In this document: piece by piece, positions 4,720 through 52,186 of the stretch
How the letters are laid out: each line of letters begins with the position of its first letter
Position numbering within the stretch: the first letter of the stretch is position 1
DNA from: an uncultured candidatus Brocadiaceae bacterium
GTDB taxonomy: Bacteria > Planctomycetota > Brocadiia > SM23-32
Assembly (NCBI GenBank): GCA_964434535.1
Contig: CAYSWA010000007.1
Location: 8,321-72,320, forward strand
Direction: 5' to 3'
Length of the DNA: 64,000 nt
Program-made: the position numbers and the translations under genes
Notes under the pieces: generated by a model
Told to the model about the DNA's origin: nothing
Database searches by the model: none
Seen by the model: only the letters and a program-made list of their open reading frames with translations

Positions 4720-6966
4720 ATGTGCGGATTCGCTAAGCGGTTGGGGATTGCGCTGGCGCTGACAATGATCTTCCTCGGCGGCGTGGTCGGGCTCGCGAGC
4801 GCCGATCAACAGCAGGAGATCCTCAATGCCTTCAAGCAGGGCATCACGCTCTACAAGGTGGGCGACTTCGCCGGCGCCCGGGAGCGGTTTGACCGGGTGC
4901 TGGCCATGGACCCGGGCATGCAGACCGCGTTGAAGATGCGCGACATGGCCGAGTTCGGCCAGTTCGCCGAGATGAAGGACACCGAGGAGCTCGGCGAGGT
5001 GGCCGAGAAGGTGCTCGACCTGATGACGCGCGCCACCCGCCAGCGGAAGCGCACTCTGGAGGACCCCGCCGCGCTGATCGAGGACTTCGAGTCGCAGGAC
5101 CTGGCCACCTACGGCAAGGCGCGCATCGCGCTGACCGGCCACGGGCCCTACGCCGTGCCGTATGTCGTGCCCCTGCTGGCGCTCGACGTCGAGGAGAGCC
5201 AGACCGTCGTCGCGCGAGCCGTCAGCCTGCTGGCCGATCTCCATCCCGACGCCGTCATGCCCCTGATCGTGGCGCTGGAGAACGCCGGGGACAGCCTGCT
5301 GAAGGCGCGGATCGCCGACGTGCTCGGCCAGATAGGCGACGAGCGGGCGGTGCCCGCCCTGATGATGCTCGCCGGCGATGAAGCCGCCCTTCAGGACGCC
5401 CGCACGGCCGCAATGGAGGCCGTGCGCAGCATCACCGCCAGCGGCCCCGGCCAGCGCGGCTCTGCCACGGCGCAGTACATCGCCCTGGCCGACGCCTACC
5501 TGCGGGAGGACAAGGACAAGGTCGGCTACACCTACGGCCTGACCGCCGAGGTCTGGGACTGGAACCCCGACGGCGAGGAGCTTCCCGACCGGATCGTCTA
5601 CGAACAGGTGCCCAACTACCTCTACTTCCAGCGCATGGCCACGGAGGTGGCCCTGGGCGGGCTCGCCGCCGACCCGGGCGCGACCGAGCTTCAGGCGCTG
5701 CTGGCGGCCTCGCTGGTGCGGCAGCTGGCGCTGTGCGAGTTCTTCAAGTCCGCCGAGGTCCGCCTCGGCGGGCGCGAGATCGAGCAGCAGGTCCGCCAGG
5801 AGGCCGCGCAGCGCGCTGAGGAGCTCTGTGTCCAGGTGCCCGTTGCGCTGCACATGCTCGCCACCCCCGTGGTCGGCCGTGCGCTCCAGCTCACGCTGGA
5901 GCTGGGCGACGGGTCGGCCAGCCTCTACCTGGTCAAGGCCATCGACGCCAAGCTCGCGGCGGCGGGGCCCGGCGCCCTGGACGAACTGACGGCTCAGGCC
6001 CTGGTCTCCGCCCTCGGCTCGGGCGACAAGGACGTGCGCTACAACGCGTCGGTCGTCCTGGTCAGCGCCGCTCCCGACGGCGAAGGGCTGCCGGCCGAGG
6101 AAGTGATGCAGGTCATGGGCGCGGCGCTGAAGGCGGCCTCTGATCGGACGGCGCTGGTGGCGATGGACAACTTCCAGATGCGCAACAAGCTCGTCCACGT
6201 CCTGCGCGGCGCGGGCGTGGCCACCAGCGAGTCAAAGGTGGTCGACGTGCTCATCGAGCACACGCTCTCGATCGAGCCGTCGGTCGACATCGTCTTCCTG
6301 TCCGGCAACCTGCCCGAGCAGAAGTTCGCGCGCATCGTCGCGCTGCTGAAGGGCGACCCGCGCACGAAGGCGGCGCCGCTTTACGTCGTGGTCGACCCGA
6401 CCGAGGAGGCGCCGGAGATGGCCGCGTTCGACCAGATCGAGCAGGTGCTCCGCCCCGACGCGCTCCGCGCCGAGGCCCTCGCGCCGATCCTGCAGGAGCA
6501 GGTCTTCGCCCGGAGCCGCTCGGCCTTCACCGACGAGGAGCAGGCCCTGGTGCTGAAGGCCGCCGAGGCGCTCGACGAGGTCGACCCGCTGGCCACCGCA
6601 TACCCGCTGGTCATGGTCGAGCCGGCGCTGGTCAAGGCGCTCAGGGGCTACGGTGAAGAAGTCTCCGCCGCCGCCGCCGAGGCGTTGGCCGGGTTCGGCT
6701 CGCCGGGCAGCGCCGCGCCGCTGGCGGGGCTGGTCGCGTCCGACGCTTCACAGGACCTGCGCGTGGCCGCCTGCAAGGCGCTCGCGGCCGTTCTGAAGCG
6801 GAGCGATGCGCCGGCCGGCGAGGACGTGGTGGCCGTGCTGAAGGCCGGGCTCGACGCGGACGCGCAGCCTCTGAGGCAGGTCGCCGCCGAGGCGCTGGGC
6901 GCGGCCGGGCTCGGCGCCGAGGCGCAGATGACGCTGCTGCGCACGAAGGCGCTCGGGCTGGAGTAG
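4720..6966 (+). CDS. secreted HEAT/PBS-lyase-like repeat protein
   Basis: ATG at 4720 with a perfect AAGGAG SD. Signal peptide MCGFAKRLGIALALTMIFLGGVVGLASA. Repeated ...ALG.IGD.RAVP.L..LL.D.. and DVRYNASVVL HEAT-like units. Confidence 0.65.
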   Translation: MCGFAKRLGIALALTMIFLGGVVGLASADQQQEILNAFKQGITLYKVGDFAGARERFDRVLAMDPGMQTALKMRDMAEFGQFAEMKDTEELGEVAEKVLDLMTRATRQRKRTLEDPAALIEDFESQDLATYGKARIALTGHGPYAVPYVVPLLALDVEESQTVVARAVSLLADLHPDAVMPLIVALENAGDSLLKARIADVLGQIGDERAVPALMMLAGDEAALQDARTAAMEAVRSITASGPGQRGSATAQYIALADAYLREDKDKVGYTYGLTAEVWDWNPDGEELPDRIVYEQVPNYLYFQRMATEVALGGLAADPGATELQALLAASLVRQLALCEFFKSAEVRLGGREIEQQVRQEAAQRAEELCVQVPVALHMLATPVVGRALQLTLELGDGSASLYLVKAIDAKLAAAGPGALDELTAQALVSALGSGDKDVRYNASVVLVSAAPDGEGLPAEEVMQVMGAALKAASDRTALVAMDNFQMRNKLVHVLRGAGVATSESKVVDVLIEHTLSIEPSVDIVFLSGNLPEQKFARIVALLKGDPRTKAAPLYVVVDPTEEAPEMAAFDQIEQVLRPDALRAEALAPILQEQVFARSRSAFTDEEQALVLKAAEALDEVDPLATAYPLVMVEPALVKALRGYGEEVSAAAAEALAGFGSPGSAAPLAGLVASDASQDLRVAACKALAAVLKRSDAPAGEDVVAVLKAGLDADAQPLRQVAAEALGAAGLGAEAQMTLLRTKALGLE

Positions 6967-7045: not shown

Positions 7046-7897
7046 ATGCTGAAGTCATTGAGCATCTGGTGCCTGCCGGACAACGAGACGCGGCCGGCCG
7101 GGGAGATGTTCGACCAGGTGCGGGAGCGCGGGTTCGACGCCGTCGAGCTGGCCATCGGAGAGGCCGGCCTCGTCACCCTCCAGAGCACCGAGGAGGAGTG
7201 CCGCGCCCTCGGGCAGCTCGCCGCAGAGCGCGGCCTCCAGACGCCGACCGTGGCCAGCGGGCTCGGCTGGAAGTATCCGCTCACGGCCGACGAGCCCGAG
7301 GCCCGCGACCACGCGGCCGAGGTAATCCGCCGCAGCCTCCGCGCCGCCTCGTGGCTCGGCGCCGAGGTGCTGCTGGTCGTGCCGGGGACGCTGGCGCCTC
7401 CGGGGGCCGACTCCGCGTTCCACGTGCCTTACGACGTGGCCTACGAGCGCATGCGGGAGGGCGTCGGCCGGCTCGTCCCCACGGCCGAGGAGACCGGCGT
7501 CGCGATGGGCATCGAGAACGTGTGGAACCGCGTGCTGCTCTCGCCGCTGGAGATGCGCGACTTCATCGACTCGTTCGGCTCCGACGCGGTGGGGGCCTAC
7601 TTCGACGCGGGCAACGTGATCGTGACCGGCTACGCGGAGGACTGGGTGCGGATACTGGGCGCGCGCATCGGCGCCGTGCACTTCAAGGACTTCCGCCGCG
7701 CCGTCGGCACCTTGGAGGGCTTCTGCGACCTGCTCGAAGGCGACGTGGACTACCCCGCCGTGATGACCGCCCTCCGCGAAGCGGGCTATGACGGGGCGTG
7801 CACGGCGGAGTACTTTGGACTGGGCGAGGCGGCCCTGGCGAAGCTGAGCGCGGCCATGGATCGCATCCTCGCCATGCAGGACGCCGCCGGTCAGTAG
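7046..7897 (+). CDS. sugar phosphate isomerase/epimerase (xylose isomerase-like TIM barrel)
   Basis: FDAVELA, GLQTPTV, NVIVTGYAEDWVR and HFKDF motifs typical of the AP-endonuclease-2 / xylose-isomerase-like family. Confidence 0.75.
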   Translation: MLKSLSIWCLPDNETRPAGEMFDQVRERGFDAVELAIGEAGLVTLQSTEEECRALGQLAAERGLQTPTVASGLGWKYPLTADEPEARDHAAEVIRRSLRAASWLGAEVLLVVPGTLAPPGADSAFHVPYDVAYERMREGVGRLVPTAEETGVAMGIENVWNRVLLSPLEMRDFIDSFGSDAVGAYFDAGNVIVTGYAEDWVRILGARIGAVHFKDFRRAVGTLEGFCDLLEGDVDYPAVMTALREAGYDGACTAEYFGLGEAALAKLSAAMDRILAMQDAAGQ

Positions 7898-9051
7898 CGC
7901 AAGAGCGCGGCGACATCGTAGCCGTCGCCGGGCATCTCTTCCTGCTCCACGGCGTAGACCGCGCCCCTGTGCACGAGGACCTGCGCGGCGGCCTGGTCGA
8001 GCAGGTCCTCGTCGCCGACCTCCCCCTCCGCGTGCTCGGTCACCGCGTCCGAATCCGCGTCGTAGCTGCCCCAGCGGTGGACCCCGAGCGCCACGAAGAG
8101 GGTGTCGACGCGCCCGTGGTGGGCCGCCGGGACGGCTTGCTTCAGCTCCGTGGAGGCGCGCTCCGTCCCGAGCGCGGCCTCGAGGAACCCGGCCGCCTCG
8201 CGCTGGGCCTGCATGAAGACCGGCTCGACGATCGGCCAGGCCCTGTCGTGCAGCTCCTGCTCATTGAGCCTATCGGGATTGCCGCGGACGGCGTGCTCGA
8301 CCAGGTGCGGGTAGGAGTTCGCCTTCCGGTAGATCGGCAGCATGCTCTCGGCGCCGGCGAGCACAAGCGGCGCCTGCTGCCCGCCGAGTGCTTCGTGCAG
8401 GGCGGCGTCGATCTGGCGGAAGTACTCGCGGATGCGGTCCTGCTCGTCGTCCTTGGGCACGCCCTGCCCGTGGAAGATGGCGGCGCCCGTGCCGCCGCCG
8501 CGGGTCTGGCCGGTCCCCGTGTGGAACTGCAAGTGCTTCTCGCGCACGTCGAAGCGGAGCGCCTCGGCGAGGCTGGCGGGCATGCCGCGCACGTCCAGGT
8601 GCCGCACGCTCCAGTGCGTGCCCTCCAGCACGCGCACGGCGTTCTGGCTCAGCGCCAGGATGTAGAAGCGGCCGTCCCGGCTGAAGAACGGCAGCAGCGG
8701 CTTGATGTGGAAGTGCTCGCCGACCGCCGATAGCTGCTCGACCTCCAGGGGGAGGCGGTAGCTGGAGAACAGGCCGGGCGCCACGAAGGCCGCCAGCCCG
8801 TCCGCCTGCTGCTGCCAGAAGTCGGAGTCCTCCAGCAGCTCCCGGGCCGGCGCGAGGAACTGCTCCACCTCGCGGCGCTGCATGCCCCGCCCCTCCAGGG
8901 CGTCGCGGGCGGCGTAGAGCGCGTTTTTGAACCGGATCGGGTTCTGGCGCGTCTGGCTGCCCGCCCGCTCGGTGGGGATGTAGAGCGAGACGCACAGTCC
9001 CCCGTGCGCGTCGATGAGTTTCTCCAGCGCTTCCCCGGTCAGCAGTGCCAT
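7891..9051 (-). CDS. conserved hypothetical protein (possible eRF1-fold / Vms1-like family)
   Basis: 386-aa ORF with good coding composition. The N-terminus LCVSLYIPTERAG...NPIRFKNALYAARDAL resembles bacterial eRF1-like (baeRF/Vms1-like) proteins, but this is recalled by eye only. Confidence 0.5.
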   Translation of the reverse strand: MALLTGEALEKLIDAHGGLCVSLYIPTERAGSQTRQNPIRFKNALYAARDALEGRGMQRREVEQFLAPARELLEDSDFWQQQADGLAAFVAPGLFSSYRLPLEVEQLSAVGEHFHIKPLLPFFSRDGRFYILALSQNAVRVLEGTHWSVRHLDVRGMPASLAEALRFDVREKHLQFHTGTGQTRGGGTGAAIFHGQGVPKDDEQDRIREYFRQIDAALHEALGGQQAPLVLAGAESMLPIYRKANSYPHLVEHAVRGNPDRLNEQELHDRAWPIVEPVFMQAQREAAGFLEAALGTERASTELKQAVPAAHHGRVDTLFVALGVHRWGSYDADSDAVTEHAEGEVGDEDLLDQAAAQVLVHRGAVYAVEQEEMPGDGYDVAALLRY

Positions 9052-9182
9052 CGTTGCGCGTCCCCTCAGCTCGTGTGGATCGGAATCCGGCGGCCGGTGC
9101 CCCCATGGGCCGCCTGCCTTCTATCCTGCATACTACCCGACAACGGTTCTGCTGTCATCAGGACGCCCACGGAAGGCGCGCC

Positions 9183-9211
9183 TTGACGGCCGGGCGCCGC
9201 CGTGGTAGAAG
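9183..9211 (+). promoter_or_regulatory. promoter TTGACG-N17-TAGAAG driving the riboswitch leader
   Basis: TTGACG 9183-9188, 17-nt spacer, TAGAAG 9206-9211. It lies immediately 5' of the riboswitch P1 stem. The same architecture recurs at other promoters in this window. Confidence 0.45.
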
Positions 9212-9392
9212 GGAGGTGTCGGCGGGTGGCCCGAAGGGGCCACGGGAAAACGGTGAGAATCCGTTGCGGACCCGCCGCTGTAACCGGTAGCCGGAGCCCG
9301 TCAGCAAGGCCACTGTCCCCCGCGCCGGGGGATGGGAAGGCGGGGCGAGCGGCGACGACCGGGAGCCAGAAGACCGACCCGCCGACGATGAG
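9212..9392 (+). promoter_or_regulatory. cobalamin (AdoCbl) riboswitch
   Basis: Conserved blocks GGTGAGAATCCG (9252-9263), B12-box GCCACTG (9309-9315), GGGAAGGCGGGG (9334-9345) and GAGCCAGAAGACC (9363-9375). P1 pairs GTCGGCGGG (9218-9226) with CCCGCCGAC (9378-9386). Confidence 0.85.
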
Positions 9393-9584
9393 TGCTGCGG
9401 ACCTTCGGGCTTGAGCGAAGCGGCACGCGAGACGGCGGAAGTCTGCCTGTCGACCGTGGCCCGCGCCCGATCTCTGCGGCGTCGGGCCGCGTTGCTGTAC
9501 GGCGCCGGCGCCCGGAGGGAGGCGGCGGTGCGGTCAGAGCGCATCGTCTCGGCGTGCCCGCACACGATGCAGGAGGGCCGGACG

Positions 9585-10328
9585 ATGCGGCGTCGCAGGG
9601 CTTTCACGCTCGTCGAACTGCTTGTCGTGATGGCGATCCTGGCCATCTTAAGCGGCCTGATCATGCCGGCCGTCAACGAGGCGCGCCTCGAGGCCAGGGC
9701 CACGAGCTGCCGCAACCGACTGCGGCAGATCGGGTTCGCCACCGAGATGCACACCACCGACCACGGCGGACACCTGCCCGACGCCGGCGACTACACCGGG
9801 CGCCAGTTCTTCGGCCATTACGGCGGGCCCGCCGAGTACGTGGACTTCGGGGAGGGGTTCCTCTCCTCCTACGTCGGCAACGACCGGGATGTCTGGCAGT
9901 GCCCGTCCTTCACGGACTTCTTCCCCCGCGCCCTCGGCCCCTGCACCGGCTACGGCTACAACTACCACTACCTGACGGAGCTGGTCGAGGAGGGCAACTG
10001 GTGGGACCCCGACTACAAGTACTGGTGGAAGGGCCTGCCGGAGGGGAGAATCCGCAAGACCACAAGAACGGTGCTGTTCGGCGACTCCGCCCGCAACTGG
10101 ATGGGGCCGCTTGAGGAGAACTGGTTCTGGACGCCGCCGTCGCAGGCGCTCGCCTGGCCCGGATGGGAGACCGCCTACGCCCACTTCCGCCACCGGCTGA
10201 AGCTGAACGTCGTCTGGGCCGACGGGCACGTCAGCACGCTGCGTCCGGATCCCATCTTCCCGCTCGACCATGACCTGCTCGGCTACATCTGCGACACCTC
10301 GGACGTCTACTTCGATCCGGAGCAGTAG
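9585..10328 (+). CDS. DUF1559 / prepilin-type N-terminal cleavage-methylation domain protein (type II pseudopilin-like)
   Basis: ATG 9585 with AGGAGG 9 nt upstream. N-terminus [22 protein letters not shown] is a class III signal / pilin N-methylation motif. C-terminal WADGHVS is the DUF1559 H-X9-G-type motif. Confidence 0.8.
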
Positions 10329-10350
10329 CGAGCGTCCCGAACTGCGTTGG

Positions 10351-10437
10351 TGGTCCCTGACACTTGAGATTATGGGCCGTGGTTCGGTGGCACGGGCTTC
10401 CAGCCCGTGAATCATGGCCAGGATGGCCATGCCACAC
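10351..10437 (+). repeat. structured dispersed repeat, copy A (three-way hairpin element)
   Basis: A 51-nt block TGGTCCCTGACACTTGAGATTATGGGCCGTGGTTCGGTGGCACGGGCTTCC and a terminal GGCCATGCCACACT are shared, in inverted orientation, with 52066-52160. Internal hairpins are CACGGGCT/AGCCCGTG and CATGGCCA/TGGCCATG. Confidence 0.7.
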
Positions 10438-10490
10438 TAAGACGGCCACCGGTAGAATCAAAACTCACAGGTCACCAGGAGGGCTCGGCC

Positions 10491-10901
10491 GTGGCCTATC
10501 GCCGCAGGAAGGTCGTCGCCGTCGTGCTGTTCGCCGGGGCGGCGCTGGGGCTGGCCGGCTTCGGCTTGCTGCGCGGGGGACGCTACGAACAGAGGGGCGC
10601 CGGGCCCGCATCGGAACAAGCGCGGGCCGCCCTGGAGGTGATCCACGCGCTGGCCCGAGAGCCCGAGAGCGTCGCCGACCATCTGCACCCGACCGCCACG
10701 CGGCTGGCGCAGGGAGCCGTAGAGAAGGCCGCCGAGCTGCTCCACAAGGCCGAATCCTACCGCCTGAAAGACGCTGAGTGGTTCGGCGAGTACCTGCGCG
10801 TCGGCGTTCTCTGCGTCCTGAAAGACGGGCGCGAGATGGAACGCTACTTCCTGTTCAGGGAGGAGGGCGGACAGCTCCTCGTCACCGGCCTCCAGCAGTA
10901 G
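10491..10901 (+). CDS. hypothetical membrane-anchored (periplasmic) protein
   Basis: GTG 10491 preceded by AGGAGG and a TAGAAT -10-like hexamer (10452-10457). Hydrophobic N-terminal helix VVAVVLFAGAALGLAGFGLL. No recognisable domain. Confidence 0.5.
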   Translation: MAYRRRKVVAVVLFAGAALGLAGFGLLRGGRYEQRGAGPASEQARAALEVIHALAREPESVADHLHPTATRLAQGAVEKAAELLHKAESYRLKDAEWFGEYLRVGVLCVLKDGREMERYFLFREEGGQLLVTGLQQ

Positions 10902-10936
10902 GGCCGTCCCCTGCTTCCACCGAAACGGGCTTGCAC

Positions 10937-11860
10937 GTGAGCGACGCAGCCGCCAAAGCGCTGATCGCAGCGGTCGCGTTCGCCGTCGGTCTCGGCCTGT
11001 CGATGTGGCTGCTGCGTCTGCCGATGCCGGGCGCCGGTGAGGGCCCGAGCGCGAGCTCGGGGGGCTATCGCTACGGGCGGGTCATCTGCATGTCGCCCGC
11101 CACCGCCGAGATCGCCTTCGCCCTCGGGGCCGGCGGGCGCGTGGTGGGCGTCAGCGAGTACACGCAGTACCCGCCCGAGGCGCTCCAGAAGCCGACCTGC
11201 GGAGGGTTCTTCAACCCCAACTACGAGCTGATCCTCGCCCTGCGGCCGGACCTGCTGCTCACCCAGGGCCGCGCGGCGGAGCTGGAGCGCTTCGCCCGCG
11301 AGAACGGGCTCGCCTTCGGCTCGGTCGAACTGACCGACCTCTCGTCCATCTTCGCCGCCGTCGAGCGGATCGGCGCGCTATTGGAGGCGCAGGAACGGGC
11401 GGCCGACCTCGTCGCCCACATGGGCGAGCGGCTGGCGGCGGTGCGGGCGCGCGTGGCGGGCCGGCAGCCGGCCTCCGTCCTGCTGGTCAGCGGTCGTGAG
11501 CCCGGCTCGCTGACCGGGGTCCACGCGGTCGGGCCGGGCACCTTCCTGCACGACCTGGTCGGCGTCGCGGGCGGGCGGAACGTCTTCGGCGACATGGAGC
11601 GCTCCTACGCGGCCGTCAGCAAGGAGGCGATCCTGGAACGGGCGCCCAAAGTCGTCATCGAGCTGCACGGCGAGGGAGGCGACGCGCGCGAGCTGAACCG
11701 GCGCGTGCGGGCGCTCTGGGGCGCAATGCAGCCGCTGCCGGCGGTGCAGGCCGGCCGCGTCCACGCCATCGAGGCCACCTACGCGATGGTGCCCGGCCCG
11801 CGGGTCGTGCGGCTGGCGGAGCGCCTGGGCGAGCTGCTGCATCCGGAGGCCGGGCCATGA
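10937..11860 (+). CDS. btuF: ABC transporter periplasmic substrate-binding protein, BtuF/FecB (cluster A-II) family
   Basis: RVICMSPATAEIAFALGAGGRVVGVSEYTQYPPEA...LRPDLLL matches the BtuF N-lobe pattern. It lies downstream of the cobalamin riboswitch. Confidence 0.75.
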   Translation: MSDAAAKALIAAVAFAVGLGLSMWLLRLPMPGAGEGPSASSGGYRYGRVICMSPATAEIAFALGAGGRVVGVSEYTQYPPEALQKPTCGGFFNPNYELILALRPDLLLTQGRAAELERFARENGLAFGSVELTDLSSIFAAVERIGALLEAQERAADLVAHMGERLAAVRARVAGRQPASVLLVSGREPGSLTGVHAVGPGTFLHDLVGVAGGRNVFGDMERSYAAVSKEAILERAPKVVIELHGEGGDARELNRRVRALWGAMQPLPAVQAGRVHAIEATYAMVPGPRVVRLAERLGELLHPEAGP

Positions 11861-12663
11861 CCGAGCCGCTGCTGGCGCTGCGCGACTGCCGCTTCCGCTA
11901 CGAGGAGGCCGGCTTCAGGCTGCGCGACGTCTCGCTGGAGGTCGGGGCCGGCAGCGTCGTCGGAGTGGTCGGCCCGAACGGGTCGGGCAAGAGCACGCTG
12001 CTGCGGCTGGCGGCCGGGCTGCTCCGCCCGGACGCGGGCGAGGCGCTCATCGGGGGCCATCGGGCCCACGAGCTGGGGCGGCGGCGGGTGGCGCGGATGC
12101 TCGCCTTCCTGCCCCAGCAGACGCGGGCGGCCTTCGGCTTCACCGCCCGGCAGGTCGTCGAGATGGGCCGCTTCCCCCACCAGCGGGGGCTCGGTTTCAT
12201 GGGCGCCGCCGACGTGCGCGCCGTGCGCACTGCGCTGGAGCGCACGGGGTCGGGCGGGCTCGCCGACCGGCGGTTCTCCACGCTCTCAGGCGGCGAGAAG
12301 CAGCGGGTGCTCATTGCCAGCATCCTGGCCCAGGAGCCGTCGGTGATGCTGCTGGACGAGCCGGCCGCCGCCCTCGACGTGCACCACCAGGCCGAGGTGC
12401 TCGACCTGCTGTGGGACCTCTCGCGCACCGGCATCGCCGTGCTGCTGGTCACGCATGACCTCAACGCGGCGGCCCGCTTCTGCGAGCGGCTCGTCCTGCT
12501 CTGCGAGGGGGCCGTGGCCCGCGCCGGGACGCCGGACCAGGTGCTGGAGCAGGAGCTGCTCGCGGAGGTCTACGGGGCCGACGTGCGCGTCTGCCGCAAC
12601 CCCGTCACGGGCACGCCGATGGTCACCGTGCCCGGAAGGAGGGCCCATGCCGCGCGCGAGTGA
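11857..12663 (+). CDS. btuD: ABC transporter ATP-binding protein (BtuD/FecE-like)
   Basis: Walker A GPNGSGKST, signature LSGGEKQRV, Walker B MLLDEPAAALD. Overlaps the upstream gene by 4 nt. Confidence 0.85.
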   Translation: MTEPLLALRDCRFRYEEAGFRLRDVSLEVGAGSVVGVVGPNGSGKSTLLRLAAGLLRPDAGEALIGGHRAHELGRRRVARMLAFLPQQTRAAFGFTARQVVEMGRFPHQRGLGFMGAADVRAVRTALERTGSGGLADRRFSTLSGGEKQRVLIASILAQEPSVMLLDEPAAALDVHHQAEVLDLLWDLSRTGIAVLLVTHDLNAAARFCERLVLLCEGAVARAGTPDQVLEQELLAEVYGADVRVCRNPVTGTPMVTVPGRRAHAARE

Positions 12664-13672
12664 GCACCTGACGCCGGTGCGCTTCGGGGGCACGGTCGGC
12701 CTGGCGGCGCTCGCCTGGGCAGCGGCGGGGCTGGTATGCCTCTTCTACGGTCAGGCCGACGTGCCGGCGGCGCGCATCCTATCGGTCCTCTCCGGCGCGG
12801 GGGGCGGCCCGCAGGAGGCCAACATCGTGCTGATGCAGCGGCTGCCGCGCGTGCTGCTGGCACTGCTGGCCGGCGGCGGGCTGGCGATGACGGGCGCGGT
12901 CTTCCAGGCGATGCTGCGCAATCCCCTCGCCACTCCGCACATCCTCGGTGTCTCGGCCGGCGGGGCGCTCGGGGCGGTCCTGGCCATATCGGCCGGCCTC
13001 GCCGGGCCGGGGCTCGGGCCGTTCCGGCCGGTGCAGCTCTTCGCGCTGGCGGGTGCTCTGGCGAACGTGACCGTCATCTACCTGCTGGCGCGGCGGCGGG
13101 AGGTCTTCTCGCCTCTGAAGCTGCTGCTGGCCGGCGTGACGCTCGGGCTGATCTGCTCGGCGCTGATCATGTTCGTGCGGTTCGTCTCCGAGCCGACGAA
13201 GCTGGTGATGGTCGACCGCTGGCTGATGGGCGGGCTCGACGTGCACGGGTTCCGCAGCGTGGCGGCGGTGCTGCCGCTGCTGCTGCCGGCGGGGGCGCTG
13301 CTGATGAGCGAGGCCGGCGCGCTGAACCAGCTCGCGTTGGGGGAGGAGCTGGCGGCCGGCCGGGGCGTGAACGTGGCCGGGGTGCAGGTCGAGGCGTTCG
13401 TTGCGGGCTCGGTGCTGACGGCCGTGGTGGTCTCGGTGGCCGGGCCGATCGGGTTCGTCGGGCTGATCGTGCCGCACGCGCTGCGGGGCATCTTCGGCCC
13501 CGACCACCGGCTGCTTCTGCCGCTGAGCTTCTTCGGGGGCGGTGCGTTCCTGGCGGCGGCGGACACGGTGGCGCGTTCGGCCTTCGCCCCTTCCGAGCTG
13601 CCGGTGGGGGTGCTGACGGCGATGCTCGGCGGCCCGTTCTTCCTGGCGCTGCTGGTCACGCGCGCCCGGTAG
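12647..13672 (+). CDS. btuC: ABC transporter permease, FecCD/BtuC family
   Basis: ATG 12647 with GGAAGGAGG upstream. About 10 TM helices with FecCD-family motifs (ILGVSAGGALGAVLAI, GPIGFVGLIVPH). Confidence 0.8.
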   Translation: MPRASEHLTPVRFGGTVGLAALAWAAAGLVCLFYGQADVPAARILSVLSGAGGGPQEANIVLMQRLPRVLLALLAGGGLAMTGAVFQAMLRNPLATPHILGVSAGGALGAVLAISAGLAGPGLGPFRPVQLFALAGALANVTVIYLLARRREVFSPLKLLLAGVTLGLICSALIMFVRFVSEPTKLVMVDRWLMGGLDVHGFRSVAAVLPLLLPAGALLMSEAGALNQLALGEELAAGRGVNVAGVQVEAFVAGSVLTAVVVSVAGPIGFVGLIVPHALRGIFGPDHRLLLPLSFFGGGAFLAAADTVARSAFAPSELPVGVLTAMLGGPFFLALLVTRAR

Positions 13673-13677
13673 CGGCT

Positions 13678-15288
<1,611 letters not shown>

Positions 15289-23796: not shown

Positions 23797-24768
23797 CTAC
23801 AGCGTAACCGGCACCTGCTGGAGGATCTCGCGGATCACGCGGGCCGCCTCCTCGAAGCTGCTCGTCTCCGTTCCCGACGTGCGGTAGAAGCGTATGCGGT
23901 GCGAGAGCACGGGCGCGGCGAGCTCCTTGACGTCGTCCGGCTCCACGTAGTCACGCCCGCCGAGCAGGGCCAGCGCCTGGGCCGCCCGGTAGAGGTGCAC
24001 GGCGCCGCGCGGGCTGACCCCGGTGGCGACCGCCTCGTGGCGGCGCGTGGCCTCGATCAGGCGCAGTATGTAGTCGAGCACCTGCTCGGAGACGTTGACC
24101 CGGCGCACCAGCGCCTGGAGCTCTACCACCTCGGGCGCCCGCAGCACCGGCTCGACGTCCTCCAGCGGGTGATAGAGCCGCTGGTCGCGCACGATGCGCT
24201 TGCCCTCTTCGGTGGTGGGATAGCCGAGGTTCATGCGCAGGAAGAACCGGTCAAGCTGCGACTCCGGCAGCGGGTAAGTGCCCTCGAACTCGAACGGGTT
24301 CTGAGTGGCCAGCACGCAGAAGGGGCGGGGCAGGGGGTGCACCACGCCGTCGACGGTGATCTGGTACTCGTCCATCGCCTCCAGCAGGCAGCTCTGCGTC
24401 TTGGGGGTGGTGCGGTTGATCTCGTCGGCCAGCACGATATTGGCGAAGAGGGGCCCGCGTTTGAAGACGAAGCGCGACTGGCTCTCGTCGTAGATGTTCA
24501 CGCCCAGCAGGTCGCCCGGCAGCAGGTCGGGGGTGAACTGGATGCGTCGGAACTCGCAGTCCAGCGCGCTGGCGATCGTGTTGGCCAGCACGGTCTTGCC
24601 CACGCCGGGCACGTCCTCGATGATCAGGTGCCCGCCGGCCAGCATGGCGACCAGGGCCAGCTCCACGCGGTCGCGCTTGCCCACGTACACCTTCTCGATC
24701 TCGGCGATCAACGCCTCGATCGAGCCGCTCGGTATGGTGAGCCTCTCCGTCCCCGTATCTGCCGTCAT
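23797..24768 (-). CDS. MoxR-family AAA+ ATPase
   Basis: Walker A EDVPGVGKT, Walker B LADEINR, sensor motifs. ATG 24768 preceded by AAGGAG. The 1084-aa track ORF is an artificial upstream extension. Confidence 0.9.
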   Translation of the reverse strand: MTADTGTERLTIPSGSIEALIAEIEKVYVGKRDRVELALVAMLAGGHLIIEDVPGVGKTVLANTIASALDCEFRRIQFTPDLLPGDLLGVNIYDESQSRFVFKRGPLFANIVLADEINRTTPKTQSCLLEAMDEYQITVDGVVHPLPRPFCVLATQNPFEFEGTYPLPESQLDRFFLRMNLGYPTTEEGKRIVRDQRLYHPLEDVEPVLRAPEVVELQALVRRVNVSEQVLDYILRLIEATRRHEAVATGVSPRGAVHLYRAAQALALLGGRDYVEPDDVKELAAPVLSHRIRFYRTSGTETSSFEEAARVIREILQQVPVTL

Positions 24769-24894
24769 GCGCGCTCCTTGCGCTCTGTGAGGGCTGATTT
24801 CGAGTATAGGGCAGCCGCCTCGGAAAAGCAAAGACACCGCCCGCCAGGAGGCCACGCCCCGCCCGCCGGGCGTGCCCGCGAGGCGCCCGGGATG

Positions 24895-24923
24895 CTTGCA
24901 TTGCCCGTCGCTTTGCCCAATAA
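24895..24923 (+). promoter_or_regulatory. putative promoter TTGCAT-N17-AATAAT for GH42 gene
   Basis: Hexamer match in the 230-nt divergent region between the MoxR gene and the beta-galactosidase gene. Confidence 0.3.
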
Positions 24924-24999
24924 TGCCCCGGAGCTTGCCCTGCCTCCAGCCGGCGCGTTCCGGCCAGGGGCATGGAGCGCACCCCACACGGAGATGCAG

Positions 25000-26976
25000 A
25001 TGAGGATCGGCGTCGCCTACTACCCCGAGCACTGGCCGCGCGAGCTCTGGCCCGAAGACGCGCGCCGCATGGCGCAGGCCGGCGTGGACGTGGTGCGCCT
25101 GGGCGAGGCGGCATGGAGCCGGCTGGAGCCCAAGCGCGGCCAGTTCGACATGGATTGGCTGGGGGAGGCGATCGAGGTGCTCGCCGCCGAGGGGTTGGAG
25201 CTGATCCTCTGCACGCCGACGGCGACCCCGCCGCCGTGGCTCTTCCACCGACATCCCAGCATGGTCCCCCAGGACGCCTGCGGGCGGCACTGGCACCCCG
25301 GAAGCCGCCGGCACGTCTGCCTCAACAGCCGCCCCTATCGCCGCTACGTCCTGCGCGTCGTGCGCGAGATGGCCCGCACGTTCGGCGAGAGGCCCGAGGT
25401 GATCGCCTGGCAGGTCGACAGCGAGCTGGCCAGCTACGGCAGCGCCGAGTGCTACTGCGACGACTGCGAACAGGCATTCCGCGAGTGGCTCAAGCGTCGC
25501 TACGGCATGATCGACCGCCTCAACAAGCTCTGGGGCAGCGTGTTCTGGAGCCAGCAGTTCACCGACTGGCACGAGGTGCGTGCCCCCCGGCGCACGCCCG
25601 GCGGCCCGCACCCCTCGCTTCTGCTCGACTACCGGCGCTTCACCTCCGCTACCGTGCGCGACTTCGTGGCCGAGCAGCGCGACCTGATCGCGCAGTACTC
25701 CGCCGGCCGGCCGAAGCCCGTCACCACCAACGTCGGCGACGGCGGCGCCGGGGTGGTCAACTGGTTCTCCCTGGCGGGCTCGCAGGACGTGGCCGGCATG
25801 AGCGGCTGCCCCGCCGAGGGCGGCGATCCGGACGCCACCGCCATGCGCCTGGACCTGGCCCGGAGCGCCGGCGGAGGCGCTTTCTGGCTCAGCGAGCAGC
25901 AGGCCGGCGCGGACGCCGCCGGCCTCCGTCCCCGACCCGGGCGGCTCCGCCTCTGGTCCTTCCAGGCCGCCGCGCGCGGCGCCAGCCTGGTGAGCTACCT
26001 GCGCTGGCGCACCGCCCCCTTCGGCCACCAGATGCGCCGCGAGGGCATGCTGGACGCCTGGGGCTCTGCCGGACGTCGCTTCGATGAGCTGACGCAGACC
26101 GTCGCCGAGCTGAAGGGCCACGCCGACCGCTGGCAGAGCAGGGCGCCTGCGGCCCGCGTCGCCCTCGTGCTGGACTACCAGGCGCACTGGGCCCTGGAGG
26201 CCGACGACCTGGGCACCGGCCTGGACTGTCTGGCCCACGTTCGGGTCCTCTACGGGCTGCTGCGCCGCCGGGGCATCGGCGTCCGCCTCATCGCGCCCGA
26301 GGCCGATCCGGCGGGCCATGACCTGCTGGTGCTGCCGATGCCCGTGATCGGGCGCGAGGCCGATGCCCGCCTGTACGGCGATTTCGCCGCCGCCGGCGGC
26401 AGCGTGCTGGTGACGGCGCCGGCGGGCATCCGCACCGAGACGAACACCTGGCCGGCCGTCGCGCCGCCGGGGCCGCTGACGGAACTGCTCGGCGCGCGGA
26501 TCGTCGAGCACGCCGCGCCGCGCCCTGAAGAGGGGGTCGAGGTCAGGTTCGGCGACGCGCGGTTCCCGGTCCGGGCATTCTGCTGCGAGCTTCAGTTGAG
26601 GGGAGCTGAGCCGCTCGGCGAGTACGGGGGGCCGTGGTACGCGGGCAGCCCGGCCGCCTGCGTGCACCCGGTGGGGGAGGGGAGCGTGCGCTTCCTCTCG
26701 GCGGCGGGCGGGCCGCAGCTCTACGAGCACATGCTCGACGCCTCCCTCTCGGGCGCCGGGATCGAGGCCCACCCCTGGAGCGCGGAGCGTGTCGAGGTCG
26801 TGCCGCTCAGCACCCCCGAGGGGGAGGCGCCGCTCACCTTCGTGCTGAACCACGGGGCCGAGGAGGCCCGCCTGCCCCTGCAGGAAGGGGCCGCCGTCAC
26901 CGACCTGCTGACCGGCGAGGAGCACGAGGACGAAGTGCGGCTCGAGGGCTGCGGCGTGGCGCTCATCCGGGGTTGA
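25000..26976 (+). CDS. beta-galactosidase, glycoside hydrolase family 42
   Basis: MRIGVAYYPEHWPRELWPEDARRMAQAGVDVVRLGEAAWSRLEP...FDMDWLGEAIEVL is the GH42 N-terminal TIM-barrel pattern. Length 658 aa. Confidence 0.8.
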   Translation: MRIGVAYYPEHWPRELWPEDARRMAQAGVDVVRLGEAAWSRLEPKRGQFDMDWLGEAIEVLAAEGLELILCTPTATPPPWLFHRHPSMVPQDACGRHWHPGSRRHVCLNSRPYRRYVLRVVREMARTFGERPEVIAWQVDSELASYGSAECYCDDCEQAFREWLKRRYGMIDRLNKLWGSVFWSQQFTDWHEVRAPRRTPGGPHPSLLLDYRRFTSATVRDFVAEQRDLIAQYSAGRPKPVTTNVGDGGAGVVNWFSLAGSQDVAGMSGCPAEGGDPDATAMRLDLARSAGGGAFWLSEQQAGADAAGLRPRPGRLRLWSFQAAARGASLVSYLRWRTAPFGHQMRREGMLDAWGSAGRRFDELTQTVAELKGHADRWQSRAPAARVALVLDYQAHWALEADDLGTGLDCLAHVRVLYGLLRRRGIGVRLIAPEADPAGHDLLVLPMPVIGREADARLYGDFAAAGGSVLVTAPAGIRTETNTWPAVAPPGPLTELLGARIVEHAAPRPEEGVEVRFGDARFPVRAFCCELQLRGAEPLGEYGGPWYAGSPAACVHPVGEGSVRFLSAAGGPQLYEHMLDASLSGAGIEAHPWSAERVEVVPLSTPEGEAPLTFVLNHGAEEARLPLQEGAAVTDLLTGEEHEDEVRLEGCGVALIRG

Positions 26977-29906: not shown

Positions 29907-30041
29907 TGAGCGGCCTCCCTGCTCGCCACGCCGCATTCTACCGAGCGGGCGAGGCCCAACACAAGGCGGCCCTCCCGCTCCGTGGCGCGACGGGCTCCGC
30001 AGGGCTTAGAATGGTCCGGATCGGCACTTCGAGGATCCCCC

Positions 30042-32762
30042 ATGCCCGACGCACAAGCCGGCCCGCCATCGACCGGGCGCTCCGACGAGGAGCTGTGGGA
30101 GCGGTTCGTCGGCGGCGACGCCGCCGCGCTCGCCGAGCTGAGAGCCCGCCACACGGGCCCGCTCTACCGCTACCTGCTGCTGAGCACCGGCCGCCCCGAC
30201 GAGGCCGGCCGGCACGTGGTCGGCACGTGGAGCCTGCTGGCCTGCTACCGGGAGCGCTTCCAGGGCTTCGCCTCGTTCCGCGCCTGGCTCTACGCCGTGG
30301 CCACCCAGAGGTGGATGCCGCCGACGCACCCCGAGCAGTTCGGCCTGACCGACCTGATGGACGATCTGCGCCGCGGCCGGCCGAGCTCGCGCGAGGGACG
30401 CATCTTCTTCCGCGTCAACGACATGCATCGCTCCGTGCGGCAGCCGTTCCTGCTGGAGGCGCTGGCGGGCCTCGGGCCCGACGAGATCGCCGCCGCCTGC
30501 CGCTTCACGCCCGAGCGCGTCCGCAAGGCTCTCGCGACGGCCTACCGGCGCCTCGCCCGCAGCGGGCTCTTCGGCCCGGGCGAGGGGGCGGACGCGGAGT
30601 CGCGCGCGGCCATCGCCGAGCAGGTCCGGCAGGCCGCCGACGTCTCGCTGCCGGAAGAGATGGCGGAGCTCGTCGAGCGCGGGGTGGCGGAGGCGACTGA
30701 GAGCGGGGAGGTGCTCCGCACTGCCCCGGCCGATTGGAGGCCCGAGCGTTCGGGCCGGCAGCGGGCGGCCCTCGTGGTGGCGTCCATCGTCCTGTTCGTG
30801 GTCGGGTCGGCCGGGCTTCTCGCTCTGCTGGGAGGCCGGGGGGAGCCCGTGCCGCCGGTCGCCGAAGCGGCCTCTCTATCAGGCCGCGCCGAGGTGCGGC
30901 CCCCGGGCGTCAGCGTGTGGCGCGAGATGGGCCGGCGGGAGTCCCTGCCGCCCGGCGCGCAGGTGCGCACCGGGCCGCAGGCCTACCTGGTGCTGCGGGG
31001 GGAGGGGGTCGAGTGGTGGCTGCCGCCCGTCACGGTCGTGGCGCTGCCCGAGCCCCGGACGGCTGAGCTGCTGGCAGGGAGGCTGTATGCGCGCGTGGAA
31101 ACCGGCGAAGCCCCGGGACGCGTGACCTCCGAGAACGGAAGCGTGGCCTGCCCGGAGGGGGAGTTCGTCGCCCGGGTGACCTCCCGGCGCTTCATCGCCG
31201 GCTGCGTGGGCGGAGACGCGGCTGTCGAGGCGGGCGAGGCGAGCGCGCAGCTCGGCCCCGGGGAGCTGACCATGGCCACCCGGGGCGAGCATGTCGGGCC
31301 GGTGCGGCCCGTCCGCCCCGCGCAGCTCACGCACTGGCTGGGTGAGTTCGCGCGCTACGAGGGGCGCCACATCGAGCCGCGGCAGCTCGCCGGCGTGCCC
31401 CTCGCGCCCGCGGCGCCCGCGCTGCCGCGCGGCGTGCGCATGGAGCGGCTCGCGCTGGAGCTCACCGTGCGCGGCCCCCTTGCGCTCGTCGAAGTGCGGG
31501 CGGCGCTGAGCAACGAAGGCGATGCGCAGTGGCAGGGGACGCTGGACCTCGGCGCGGCCGTCCTTCCCCCGCCCCTGGCGATCACCTCGGACGGGCCGCT
31601 TCGGCTGGCGCCCGGCGAGGGGGGCGAGGCCCGGCTGGCCGGGCTCTGCCTCATGCGCGACCGGCGCGGGCACTACGCCCTCGGCATCGACCCGGGCGCC
31701 TGGAGCGGCGGGACAATCGGCCGTCTGGACGTGCAGGTGAGCTCTGACGCGCAGGGCGGCATCGGCCGCTTCGCCTGCCCCACGCTCGGGGCGCGCTTGA
31801 GGCCGCGGGGGGCGCTGGACTGGACGGCGCGGCGCCGGGATTTCGCTGCGGAGACGCCGCTCGTCTTCGAGTTCGAGTTCGGCAAACCCGAGGGCATCGC
31901 GTGCCTGACGGGCTCCACCGACGGCGCGCGGGCGGCCCTGGTCGCCTGGCGGCCTCCCGCCGTGAAGCAGGAGTGGATCGCGAAGGAGCGCAACGTCTTC
32001 ATCGCTTTCGACGCCACGGCCGACTTCGGCCCGGGCGGCCGTTTCGCTGCCCAGGAGGCGCTGGAGGGCCTGATCCAGGCGCTGCCGCCGGGCTGCTCGA
32101 CGGCCTTGCTCGCCTACGACGGCCGGCTGCGGCTTGACCCCGACCGCCTGGCGCTGCACCATCCCGACCGGGTGGAGTCGATGCTCTCCGGGCTCTGGCA
32201 GCTCCAGGTGGAGGGCGCGGAGGAGGAGGCCGCGCCCGGCGCCTTCCTGGCGGCCGCCGTCGAGCTGGCCGTGGGGGCCGAAGGGGAGGGGTTGCTCGTG
32301 TTCGTCACCGGGCGCGAGGCGCCCGTGGAGCTGCCGGAGGCCAGGCCGGACGGCGGCCTGCGCGTCTGCGTCATCCAGGTCGGCGCGGAGGCGCCCGCCG
32401 CGGCGTATGCGGCCCTGTGTGCGGGCACGGGCGGCGTGGCGCTGGCCGTGCCGCCGACGGCGGCGCCGGACCTGGCCGTGATCGACTTCCTGGTGAACCT
32501 GGACGTGGCGGCGCTGCGCGAGGTCGCGCTCGATGCGCCGGGCGCCGGCGCGGCGGCCGTGCTGCGGGGGGAGGCGCGCTTCAGCAGCCAGCCGGTTGTC
32601 GGGCTGCTCGCCCTGCCGGGGGCGGGGGGTTCGGTGGCCGGCCGCTTTCGGGCGCGCGCCGGGGGACGCGCATTGGAGCGGCACTTCGCCCTCGAAGCGA
32701 CGCCGGTCGACTCCCTGCCGCCCGCGCTCGTCCGGGTGCTGGGGCAGCGCCACCTGCGGTGA
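30042..32762 (+). CDS. fusion protein: ECF sigma-70 factor + transmembrane FecR-like anti-sigma domain + C-terminal vWA-like domain
   Basis: Sigma region 2 (LYRYLLLSTGRPDEAGRHVVGTWSLLACYRERFQGFASFRAWLYAVA) and region 4 HTH (PDEIAAACRFTPERVRKALATAYRRL). One TM helix (LVVASIVLFVVGSAGLLALL). FecR-like block (SVWREMGRRESLPPGAQVRTGPQAYLVLRGEGVEWW). vWA-like VFIAFDATADFGPGG near the C-terminus. A TAGAAT -10 lies at 30007-30012. Confidence 0.7.
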   Translation: MPDAQAGPPSTGRSDEELWERFVGGDAAALAELRARHTGPLYRYLLLSTGRPDEAGRHVVGTWSLLACYRERFQGFASFRAWLYAVATQRWMPPTHPEQFGLTDLMDDLRRGRPSSREGRIFFRVNDMHRSVRQPFLLEALAGLGPDEIAAACRFTPERVRKALATAYRRLARSGLFGPGEGADAESRAAIAEQVRQAADVSLPEEMAELVERGVAEATESGEVLRTAPADWRPERSGRQRAALVVASIVLFVVGSAGLLALLGGRGEPVPPVAEAASLSGRAEVRPPGVSVWREMGRRESLPPGAQVRTGPQAYLVLRGEGVEWWLPPVTVVALPEPRTAELLAGRLYARVETGEAPGRVTSENGSVACPEGEFVARVTSRRFIAGCVGGDAAVEAGEASAQLGPGELTMATRGEHVGPVRPVRPAQLTHWLGEFARYEGRHIEPRQLAGVPLAPAAPALPRGVRMERLALELTVRGPLALVEVRAALSNEGDAQWQGTLDLGAAVLPPPLAITSDGPLRLAPGEGGEARLAGLCLMRDRRGHYALGIDPGAWSGGTIGRLDVQVSSDAQGGIGRFACPTLGARLRPRGALDWTARRRDFAAETPLVFEFEFGKPEGIACLTGSTDGARAALVAWRPPAVKQEWIAKERNVFIAFDATADFGPGGRFAAQEALEGLIQALPPGCSTALLAYDGRLRLDPDRLALHHPDRVESMLSGLWQLQVEGAEEEAAPGAFLAAAVELAVGAEGEGLLVFVTGREAPVELPEARPDGGLRVCVIQVGAEAPAAAYAALCAGTGGVALAVPPTAAPDLAVIDFLVNLDVAALREVALDAPGAGAAAVLRGEARFSSQPVVGLLALPGAGGSVAGRFRARAGGRALERHFALEATPVDSLPPALVRVLGQRHLR

Positions 32763-45797: not shown

Positions 45798-45937
45798 AGC
45801 CCTTGGCGCACCCCAGGAGGCCGTCCGACCGGATCGGGGGCGCCTCCAGGGCGGCAGCGACGCCCCATTATAGCCGCAGAGCGGCGCCTGCTCAATCTCC
45901 GAACATCCGGGGACGGCCGCCGCGCCGGGCCGGGAGG

Positions 45938-45966
45938 TTGACGCGGGGCGGGCCTTCCGCTACGCT
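45938..45966 (+). promoter_or_regulatory. putative promoter TTGACG-N17-TACGCT for purF
   Basis: Hexamer match about 70 nt upstream of the purF start. Confidence 0.35.
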
Positions 45967-46035
45967 TGCGGGTGGAGTGGGCGAGTGACGGGGGGCCGGC
46001 CATTGAAGGCCTACTGCGGGAGGTGTGAGTCCACG

Positions 46036-47466: not shown

Positions 47467-47580
47467 GCCCCGGCGCTCGGCAGACCCTGGGAAGTATCTG
47501 GCCTGGCGCCTGGACCCACGGAATGGTAGGATAGGCGCAGAACCTACGGCTCTGTATGTTGCATCGGCAGGAGCGCGGCC

Positions 47581-49134
<1,554 letters not shown>

Positions 49135-49224
49135 GATCGGACCGCCGAACCTACCACCATGTCGGCGCCGGGCCGGCCGGCTCGCCACCTCACCAGCGTA
49201 TCCCTGCCTGTCGTATCCTCCTGC

Positions 49225-49239
49225 TGGCAAACCGTTTGC
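49225..49239 (+). promoter_or_regulatory. sigma-54 (-24/-12) promoter TGGCAA-N5-TTGCG upstream of porin-amt-glnK
   Basis: CTGGCAAACCGTTTGCG has GG and GC separated by 10 nt. It lies about 110 nt upstream of the porin start. Confidence 0.5.
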
Positions 49240-49347
49240 GCAGGACATGGCGTCTCCGCCCCCGCGTTGGCACGCGGCTCGCCTATGCGGAGGTCGAAGC
49301 GGGGCCCCGTCGCGGGCCGCGCAGCCCTGGAGAGCGGGAGGTGAGAG

Positions 49348-50124: not shown

Positions 50125-50151
50125 ATGCCTTCTACGGCAGGAGAGAAGAAG

Positions 50152-51501: not shown

Positions 51502-51520
51502 GGGAAGGAGGGCTGCAGGC

Positions 51521-51862
51521 GTGAAACTGATCATCGCCTACATCCAGCCCGAGAAGCTCAGTGACGTCAAGCAGGAGCTCTACCGGGCCGAGGTCTTCAA
51601 GATGTCCGTCACCAACGCGCTCGGCTGCGGCCAGCAGAAGGGCTACACCGAGTCCTACCGCGGCGTTGAGATGGAGGTGAACCTGCTGAAGAAGGTCCGG
51701 CTGGAGATCGCGGTCAACGAGGACTTCGTCCGGCCGACGGTCGAGGCGATCATCGCGGGCGCGAAGACCGGCCAGATCGGCGACGGGAAGATCTTCGTGC
51801 TCGACCTGCACCAGTGCATCCGCATCCGCACCGGCGAGACGGGGAGCGGGGCCATCGGCTGA
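51521..51862 (+). CDS. glnK: nitrogen regulatory protein P-II (GlnK, amt-linked)
   Basis: [13 protein letters not shown]...T-loop YRGVEMEV...RIRTGETG. 19 nt downstream of amt. Confidence 0.9.
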
Positions 51863-52160: not shown

Positions 52161-52186
52161 GTAGCTTACGGAAGGCCGAGGAGCAT

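Follow-up and report, generated by a model that had tools for sequence, protein, structure and literature searches.

How can a diderm bacterium acquire cobalamin (vitamin B12) through an operon that encodes no TonB-dependent receptor and begins with a gene for a pilin-like protein? The question is raised by a stretch of 64,000 nucleotides (nt) from an uncultured candidatus Brocadiaceae bacterium (Planctomycetota; contig CAYSWA010000007.1, positions 8,321 to 72,320 of the forward strand), the whole of which we refer to as the window. Here, a cobalamin riboswitch precedes a prepilin-type, DUF1559/HX9DG-like gene, termed pil, a short gene, termed small, and btuF, btuD, and btuC, which encode an ATP-binding cassette (ABC) importer of the BtuFCD type (Table 1). 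An earlier note, made from the sequence alone, had described this arrangement, and all of its parts were present at or near the places it assigned to them. The novelty lies in the two-gene pil-small module, the riboswitch and the importer being of an ordinary kind. We consider it probable that this module serves the acquisition of corrinoids at a step before the inner-membrane transporter. It bears on the uptake of a 1.3-kDa cofactor by diderms in which no BtuB is obvious. In addition, few families of unknown function in Planctomycetota and allied bacteria are as large as the DUF1559/HX9DG proteins, and the pil subfamily offers a testable ligand and phenotype.

Linkage of the pilin-like gene to B12 genes in three phyla

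The earlier note had proposed comparative genomics as the check on a linkage between riboswitch, DUF1559 gene, and btuFCD. The outcome was positive and extended over three phyla. We compared 70 loci from species-representative genomes (loci are cited by L numbers) using tblastn and Rfam scans. In Planctomycetota, including metagenome-assembled genomes (MAGs) labeled Brocadiia or Brocadiaceae, the order is riboswitch, pil, small, btuF, btuD, btuC. The riboswitch lies directly 5' of pil in 12 of the 12 planctomycete loci whose sequence extends far enough upstream (the window, L001, L002, L004, L005, L007, L008, L009, L010, L012, L020, and L036). Four operons (L009, L010, L020, and L035) additionally carry the cobinamide-salvage and nucleotide-loop genes cobU-cobT-cobS between small and btuF. 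At the same position, L007 (9213-10301) encodes a protein of 362 amino acids (aa) that has no Pfam match and resembles a methionine synthase model weakly (NF002119, E 1e-4). This MetE-like protein may be a methionine synthase that needs no B12 and is repressed by it.

A different architecture was found in Verrucomicrobiota (~24 loci, many from marine MAGs). There, metH (for the B12-dependent methionine synthase), sometimes a gene for a DUF4346 pterin-binding protein, pil, small, and a gene for a DUF6580 membrane protein follow one another, with overlaps or gaps of a few nucleotides between the metH, pil, small, and DUF6580 genes. The third phylum is represented by the Armatimonadota relatives L037 and L038 (37-38% identity), both with a riboswitch 5' of the pil-like gene. 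In L037, the pil-like gene is followed by genes for a lipoprotein BtuF, BtuC, BtuD, and a second binding protein; in L038, there is apparently no other B12 gene behind the switch. The operon-terminal second binding protein of L037 (9766-10899) is Peripla_BP_2-like and has a Cys-rich N-terminal extension (CCENSCCNCPYDFG). An intermediate relative, P0254 (180 bits to the profile; L081:30-2095), is encoded on a short contig with FecCD and ABC_tran genes immediately ahead of it, and no riboswitch was detected in the available sequence. In this further architecture, a pilin-like gene is again coupled to an ABC importer of type II.

As controls, we used 32 loci of generic DUF1559-like paralogs (≤36% identity), 31 of which had no cobalamin riboswitch and no btu or metH neighbors. 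The remaining locus, L052 from a Fimbriimonadaceae MAG, gave a borderline riboswitch match of 33.3 bits against a gathering score of 31.5. This match (5740-5878) is only 139 nt long and lies directly 5' of a gene for a generic 291-aa DUF1559-like protein, with prfA behind it. The match could represent an abbreviated form of the riboswitch and hints at a wider B12 control of pilin-like genes in Armatimonadota. Because the linkage recurs in dozens of independent genomes and the generic loci serve as controls, chance or hitchhiking is ruled out and, to judge from gene neighborhoods, the pil subfamily belongs to the B12 regulon.

The subfamily itself is sharply delimited. A search of 5.8 billion proteins with pil returned ~59 clusters at E ≤ 1e-68, with 48-92% identity, followed by a pronounced gap; the next matches, generic DUF1559 proteins, appeared at 1e-44 and weaker. 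An exhaustive profile search, with clusters at 50% identity, gave 378,629 clusters for the superfamily at E ≤ 1e-3 and 177,253 at E ≤ 1e-10, among which the core subfamily is a single representative. These comparisons place pil in a distinct subfamily of DUF1559/HX9DG-like proteins. Verrucomicrobiota-type clusters contain up to 381 member sequences and are abundant in ocean metagenomes, which makes this version relevant to marine B12 cycling. Carriers include MAGs from the Red Sea, the Arctic, the Antarctic, and oxygen-minimum zones.

DUF1559/SBP_bac_10 has been treated as an expanded family of unknown function (PMC10632474, PMC8567305). There are 68 DUF1559-type paralogs in Planctopirus limnophila (PMC10632474) and 91 paralogs of the family in Tuwongella immobilis, where members of the wider family are expressed and present in membrane fractions (PMC8567305). 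A full-text search, with subscription journals outside its scope, found no literature linking DUF1559, pseudopilins or prepilins, or DUF6580 to cobalamin. To call the locus the first functional hook for DUF1559, as the earlier note did, is therefore a fair description.

Features of the proteins encoded by the module

The N terminus of the pil product resembles that of prepilins. It matches PF07963 (N_methyl) at 35.2 bits and TIGR02532 at 28.4 bits, and an NCBIfam match relates residues 5-61 to GspG, the major pseudopilin. The sequence MRRRRA, which precedes the putative cleavage site, has the form of a class III prepilin signal, with a short basic leader, Phe at +1, Glu at +5, and a hydrophobic α1N. 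The residue at -1 is Ala in the window and Gly in some orthologs. Across 48 sequences, F7, T8, L9, E11 (Glu+5), and P28 (Pro+22) do not vary, and generic family members have them too, as they do the HX9DG block. In a profile search against the PDB, pil matched solved structures through helix α1 only, and residue 7 was aligned to residue 1 of mature pilins. From this alignment, cleavage by a prepilin peptidase is predicted between Ala6 and Phe7.

The assignment of pil to DUF1559/SBP_bac_10 (PF07596) is marginal by Pfam, with 24.3 bits against a cut-off of 23.3 over about 35 of 268 profile positions (2-35). Profile searches align positions 3-222 of pil, nearly its full length, to PF07596-annotated proteins. 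With the HX9DG model TIGR04294, pil reaches 15.9 bits (cut-off 19); its sequence contains the literal motif H203-x9-D213-G214, which is conserved among subfamily sequences, and the Armatimonadota relative in L037 passes the model at 23 bits. Further family-wide motifs are retained (GY.YN..YL, F165, D167, H200, R202, H203, W211, D213, and H215). A second set of residues is conserved only in the B12-linked subfamily and is rich in aromatic side chains (W104, W139, W172, W180, W194, F75, F76, Y144, Y198, M173, and C236). The Trp content of the globular domain is 5.5% in the B12-linked subfamily versus 2.8% in generic members, a twofold difference.

An AlphaFold2 model of pil, based on the 48-sequence alignment, reached a predicted local distance difference test score (pLDDT) of 88 and a predicted template modeling score of 0.82. 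It consists of a 50-residue N-terminal helix (residues 9-59) and a mostly β domain of ~190 residues. With its long N-terminal helix packed on a β sheet, the predicted structure has a pilin fold.

The product of small was regarded as a membrane-anchored protein in the earlier note, and both the gene and the anchor stood up to closer analysis. All seven long pil-bearing metagenomic contigs carry a gene for a protein of 132-149 aa directly 3' of pil, and these proteins are 24-40% identical to that of the window. Because these orthologs align, the comparison confirms small as a real gene with its start at 10491. Overall, orthologs of small directly follow pil in about 35 loci, and pil is nearly always followed by small. 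The protein matched no Pfam or NCBIfam family. In its AlphaFold2 model (pLDDT 83), residues 4-28 form a helix, after which come three more helices and a sheet of four strands. The three helices and the curved antiparallel sheet form a cone-shaped α+β arrangement, which is consistent with a predicted NTF2-like fold.

In Verrucomicrobiota, a DUF6580 protein (PF20221) of 180-215 aa is always encoded after pil and small beside metH. It contains an invariant Cys, an invariant Asp, and several invariant Pro and aromatic residues. Sequence and profile searches revealed no likeness to solved transporters, including S components of the energy-coupling factor type, or to any other solved structure, and no NCBIfam model was matched. 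DUF6580 may be an unrecognized inner-membrane corrinoid permease, and we nominate it as a candidate for this function.

Control of the operon

The riboswitch match spans the whole RF00174 model (positions 1-189) on the same strand as the downstream genes and is the sole structured RNA that Rfam detected across the window. From the end of the aptamer to the first start codon, there are 188 nt. Alignment of this leader with those of relatives revealed a conserved hairpin, in which positions 9465-9470 of the window pair with 9482-9487. The homologs of this hairpin in L005 and L002 have TTTTGTTG on their 3' side and are scored as intrinsic terminators, located 5' of pil. The hairpin is retained in the window (9465-9487), where it is without a U-tract, and no terminator-like site was found anywhere in 8900-13900. 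A Shine-Dalgarno sequence, AGGAGGG at 9571-9577, precedes the pil ATG at 9585. The minimum-free-energy fold of the window leader places both this sequence and the start codon inside a helix, with a z-score of only -1.65, which is not significantly better than that of shuffled sequences. In L009, a promoter-like TTGACT-17-TATAGT ends where the aptamer begins.

The earlier note had suggested that the riboswitch regulates the DUF1559 gene specifically, the small gene having its own TAGAAT box behind a structured repeat. Both sequence elements are indeed present. A promoter-like ATGCCA-18-TAGAAT (9 of 12 positions) lies at 10429-10458 and overlaps two perfect hairpins without U-tract, CACGGGCTTCCAGCCCGTG and CATGGCCAGGATGGCCATG, at about 10391-10436. 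Specific regulation of the first gene is rejected as a general feature. The spacing between pil and small in orthologs ranges from a 4-nt overlap to 58 nt; it is 162 nt in the window (10329-10490), and this gap is lineage-specific and peculiar to this genome. It holds no terminator-like site, and the terminator of the relatives lies 5' of pil. A terminator-type platform in that position would govern the entire operon. Thus, the comparative picture points to a single operon under a single riboswitch; an extra internal promoter before small is possible in this genome and is not needed.

As for the origin of the gap, a dispersed repeat was rejected: no second copy of the hairpins was found within the 64-kb window, and the whole gap folds no better than shuffled sequences (z-score -0.88). 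The hairpin pair looks like an inserted palindromic element.

The importer and its surroundings

The binding protein, the FecCD permease, and the ATPase encoded in this one operon make up a complete importer of the BtuFCD type. The btuF product is 54-59% identical to its equivalents in related operons, and the btuC product is 66-76% identical to its orthologs. None of the three proteins reaches the NCBIfam equivalog thresholds for B12 specificity, though B12 or corrinoid models rank best. BtuF scored 83.6 bits with NF002894 (cut-off 234), the best match of BtuD was the corrinoid ABC transporter ATPase model NF007082 at 267.8 bits (cut-off 537), and the best matches of BtuC were BtuC models at 214.7 and 213.4 bits, both under their cut-offs (461 for the former). 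We ascribe B12 specificity to the importer because of the riboswitch and the cobU-cobT-cobS neighbors.

The earlier note had found no BtuB-like receptor, and our analysis agrees with it. None is encoded in the operon, no Plug or TonB_dep_Rec domain was detected when the probable genes of the window were screened with Pfam, and no TonB-dependent receptor appears in the gene lists around seven related contigs.

Table 1. Features of the B12-linked operon and its flanks in the window, with examples of DUF6580 genes from related loci.
Feature	Position	Strand	Evidence and remarks
baeRF/ribosome hibernation type gene	7891-9051	-	PF18849, 165 bits; NF052287, 156.6 bits (cut-off 330)
Cobalamin riboswitch aptamer	9207-9396	+	Rfam RF00174, 85.9 bits (gathering score 31.5), E 8.8e-20
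Leader and expression platform	9397-9584	+	Leader alignment, folding
pil, prepilin-type, DUF1559/HX9DG-like, 247 aa	9585-10328	+	First gene 3' of the riboswitch; ATG start
Two adjacent GC-rich hairpins	10391-10409, 10413-10431	+	Minimum-free-energy and centroid folds
small, 136 aa, predicted N-terminal transmembrane helix and NTF2-like domain	10491-10901	+	GTG start, own AGGAGG
btuF, BtuF-like binding protein, N-terminal hydrophobic anchor	10937-11860	+	GTG start; PF01497 (Peripla_BP_2), 91.3 bits
btuD, BtuD-like ABC ATPase	11857-12663	+	PF00005, 105.5 bits; ATGA overlap with btuF stop
btuC, FecCD-family permease, 341 aa	12647-13672	+	PF01032 (FecCD), 284 bits; 17-nt overlap with btuD end
CTP synthase gene, convergent, downstream of the operon	13678-15288	-	Gene/family matches
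DUF6580 genes, examples	L003:9249-9788, L006:9171-9764		~22 further Verrucomicrobiota loci within L013-L034 and L039

The gene of the bacterial archaeo-eukaryotic release factor (baeRF) type lies between an AP_endonuc_2 gene and the riboswitch, in divergent orientation, and has no counterpart there in the otherwise syntenic L001, L002, and L005. By Pfam, the rest of the window contains housekeeping and nitrogen-assimilation genes. The nitrogen-assimilation cluster (43461-59748) comprises amtB, a P-II gene, glnA, and genes for the large and small subunits of glutamate synthase. It also contains two GAF-domain sigma-54 activator genes (43461-45797, minus strand; 47581-49134, plus strand) and encodes a weakly MipA-like protein of 258 aa (49348-50124). 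Two further genes are a 926-aa open reading frame (29982-32762) with a strong coding signal and no Pfam match at E ≤ 0.001, and a GH42 β-galactosidase gene (23899-26976) whose product has an N-terminal extension of ~370 aa without a domain match.

Possible roles of the proposed envelope module

The pil-small pair occurs with BtuF-BtuCD in Planctomycetota and with DUF6580 in Verrucomicrobiota, two inner-membrane systems that are unrelated to each other. As the pair stays constant across this exchange of transporters, it most likely works ahead of them, in the periplasm or the outer envelope. The riboswitch implies expression when B12 is scarce, and the Verrucomicrobiota copies share an operon with the B12-consuming MetH; the function would therefore be corrinoid supply and not a B12-independent bypass. 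We infer that the unit is a B12-repressed corrinoid-acquisition operon whose first two genes form a conserved envelope module. That this module contributes to corrinoid acquisition at a step upstream of the inner-membrane transporter is, in our judgment, likely.

How it might do so is more tentative. We suggest that a prepilin peptidase would cleave pil between Ala6 and Phe7 and that pil would be displayed on, or as part of, a short envelope structure resembling a type IV filament or a pseudopilus. Its Trp-rich globular domain would bind corrinoids and, together with the NTF2-like inner-membrane partner, hand them to BtuF-BtuCD or DUF6580. The module would thus do what falls to BtuB/TonB or BtuG in other diderm bacteria, namely capture and deliver corrinoids, and plentiful B12 would cause the riboswitch to shut down the entire operon. 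We hold this specific mechanism, with a filament-displayed, B12-binding pil, to be a real possibility whose chances fall slightly short of even.

Several observations weigh against this interpretation. The Verrucomicrobiota loci have no cobalamin riboswitch, and even a hidden one was not found at E ≤ 0.1. The globular domain of pil resembles no known B12 binder, and the pocket of NTF2-like proteins is too small for a whole corrin. BtuF is already present, and a second binding protein is not strictly needed. Type II secretion or type IV pilus machinery is absent from the Pfam survey of the window, and no filament-assembly gene for an ATPase, platform protein, secretin, or prepilin peptidase is present there or among the listed flanking genes of related loci. 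More distant DUF6580 loci (L078-L080) have no B12 context or riboswitch, and their DUF6580 genes adjoin a Metallophos_2 gene. Finally, every carrier is uncultured and known from metagenome-assembled or single-cell genomes alone.

The main rival is a tethered periplasmic hand-off complex that forms no filament. In such a complex, pil, cleaved or uncleaved, would be anchored in the inner membrane by α1 and, with its anchored NTF2-like partner, would concentrate corrinoids and pass them to the anchored BtuF-BtuCD or to DUF6580, while the outer membrane would be crossed by another route. Hydrophobic N-terminal anchors are found in pil, small, and BtuF alike, no assembly machinery is encoded nearby, and a globular domain of 190 aa is large for a filament subunit. 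Moreover, proteins with N_methyl and SBP_bac_10 domains fractionate with detergent-soluble membranes in T. immobilis (PMC8567305). The complex leaves the passage of a 1.3-kDa ligand across the outer membrane unexplained. It also does not account for the invariance of Glu+5 and Pro+22 in the subfamily and the wider family, as these residues matter for pilin filament assembly and not for anchoring. We regard the tethered complex as somewhat unlikely, though it deserves serious consideration.

Alternatively, pil could be a structural or gating subunit of a pilus or pseudopilus that opens or plugs a secretin-type outer-membrane channel, through which corrinoids would diffuse to be bound by BtuF alone. 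Its GspG-like N terminus would suit such a role, as would the lack of a TonB-dependent receptor in the loci and the place of pil directly behind the riboswitch, which in other diderms is usually that of btuB. A generic piston, however, fits less well with the conserved aromatic surface specific to the subfamily and with a dedicated NTF2-like partner, both of which speak for a specific interaction, and no linked secretin was found. A gating role is very unlikely.

Expression under low B12 would also be expected if pil served B12 starvation in a way unrelated to transport, for instance, as a pilin-type adhesin by which cells cling to particles or to partners that produce B12. Pilins commonly mediate adhesion, and the pilin-like gene of L038 apparently stands alone behind its riboswitch. 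Nevertheless, the tight and often translational coupling to transport genes in two architectures and to metH argues against an adhesin, as does the absence of B12 control from the Verrucomicrobiota copies, and we see hardly any room for it. The last possibility is an accident of position: the superfamily is enormous, at 378,629 clusters with E ≤ 1e-3, its genes are scattered around planctomycete genomes (PMC8567305), and one of them might simply have come to lie between riboswitch and btuFDC. This is effectively refuted by the comparative data, in which one sharply delimited subfamily recurs in three phyla and three architectures and 31 of the 32 generic loci lack the linkage.

The proposed display of a B12-binding pil could be taken further. 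Diderms of the Planctomycetota-Verrucomicrobiota-Chlamydiota group and Armatimonadota might import B12 by a device of the type IV filament kind that replaces the TonB-dependent receptor. Corrinoid would be captured outside or in the outer envelope by a B12-binding pilin, placed at the tip of the (pseudo)pilus or along its length, and retraction would bring it to the NTF2-like protein, acting as an inner-membrane docking site, and on to BtuFCD or DUF6580. We consider such a device improbable. If it did exist, the giant DUF1559/HX9DG expansions would represent a repertoire of ligand-specific "fishing" pilins for nutrients. Replacement of BtuB by pilus-mediated capture would be categorically new, a prospect that we view with considerable doubt.

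Relation to known systems

The operon has much in common with the BtuB-BtuFCD operons of Proteobacteria and Bacteroidota, which likewise have a cobalamin riboswitch in the leader, a type II ABC importer and, sometimes, cobinamide-salvage genes. In contrast to these, it encodes no TonB-dependent receptor and starts with the prepilin-type and NTF2-like membrane proteins, and its BtuF, BtuC, and BtuD matches remain under the NCBIfam equivalog cut-offs. Accessory envelope proteins in B12 uptake loci are known from Bacteroides, where BtuG and BtuH are surface-exposed B12-binding lipoproteins with β-propeller or other folds that work with BtuB. Similarly to these, pil would capture corrinoid ahead of the transporter; it differs from them in its prepilin-type anchor and predicted pilin fold, and there is no BtuB in the locus.

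With the DUF1559/SBP_bac_10 (PF07596) and HX9DG paralogs of Planctomycetota, Verrucomicrobiota, Lentisphaerota, and Armatimonadota, pil shares the family-wide motifs along its full length. Unlike the generic members, its subfamily is divergent, Trp-rich, and marginal at the Pfam threshold, and it has a fixed partner gene and a B12 context. Other close known systems are GspG of type II secretion, type IV pilins, and the DNA-uptake minor pilins ComP and ComGC.

A parallel outside bacteria is the bindosome of the archaeon Sulfolobus solfataricus, in which sugar-binding proteins with class III signal peptides are assembled by the Bas system and feed ABC importers (PMC3047682). Both systems have a class III N terminus on a protein that is genetically coupled to a nutrient ABC importer. 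However, the bindosome proteins have true substrate-binding-protein folds, while the globular domain of pil, a putative ligand binder, is predicted to have a pilin fold. Furthermore, the operon described here belongs to a bacterial diderm and includes a separate BtuF, and no Bas-like assembly genes are present in the window. In concept, the pil module as proposed is closest to the archaeal bindosome and to the ligand-binding minor pilins of DNA uptake.

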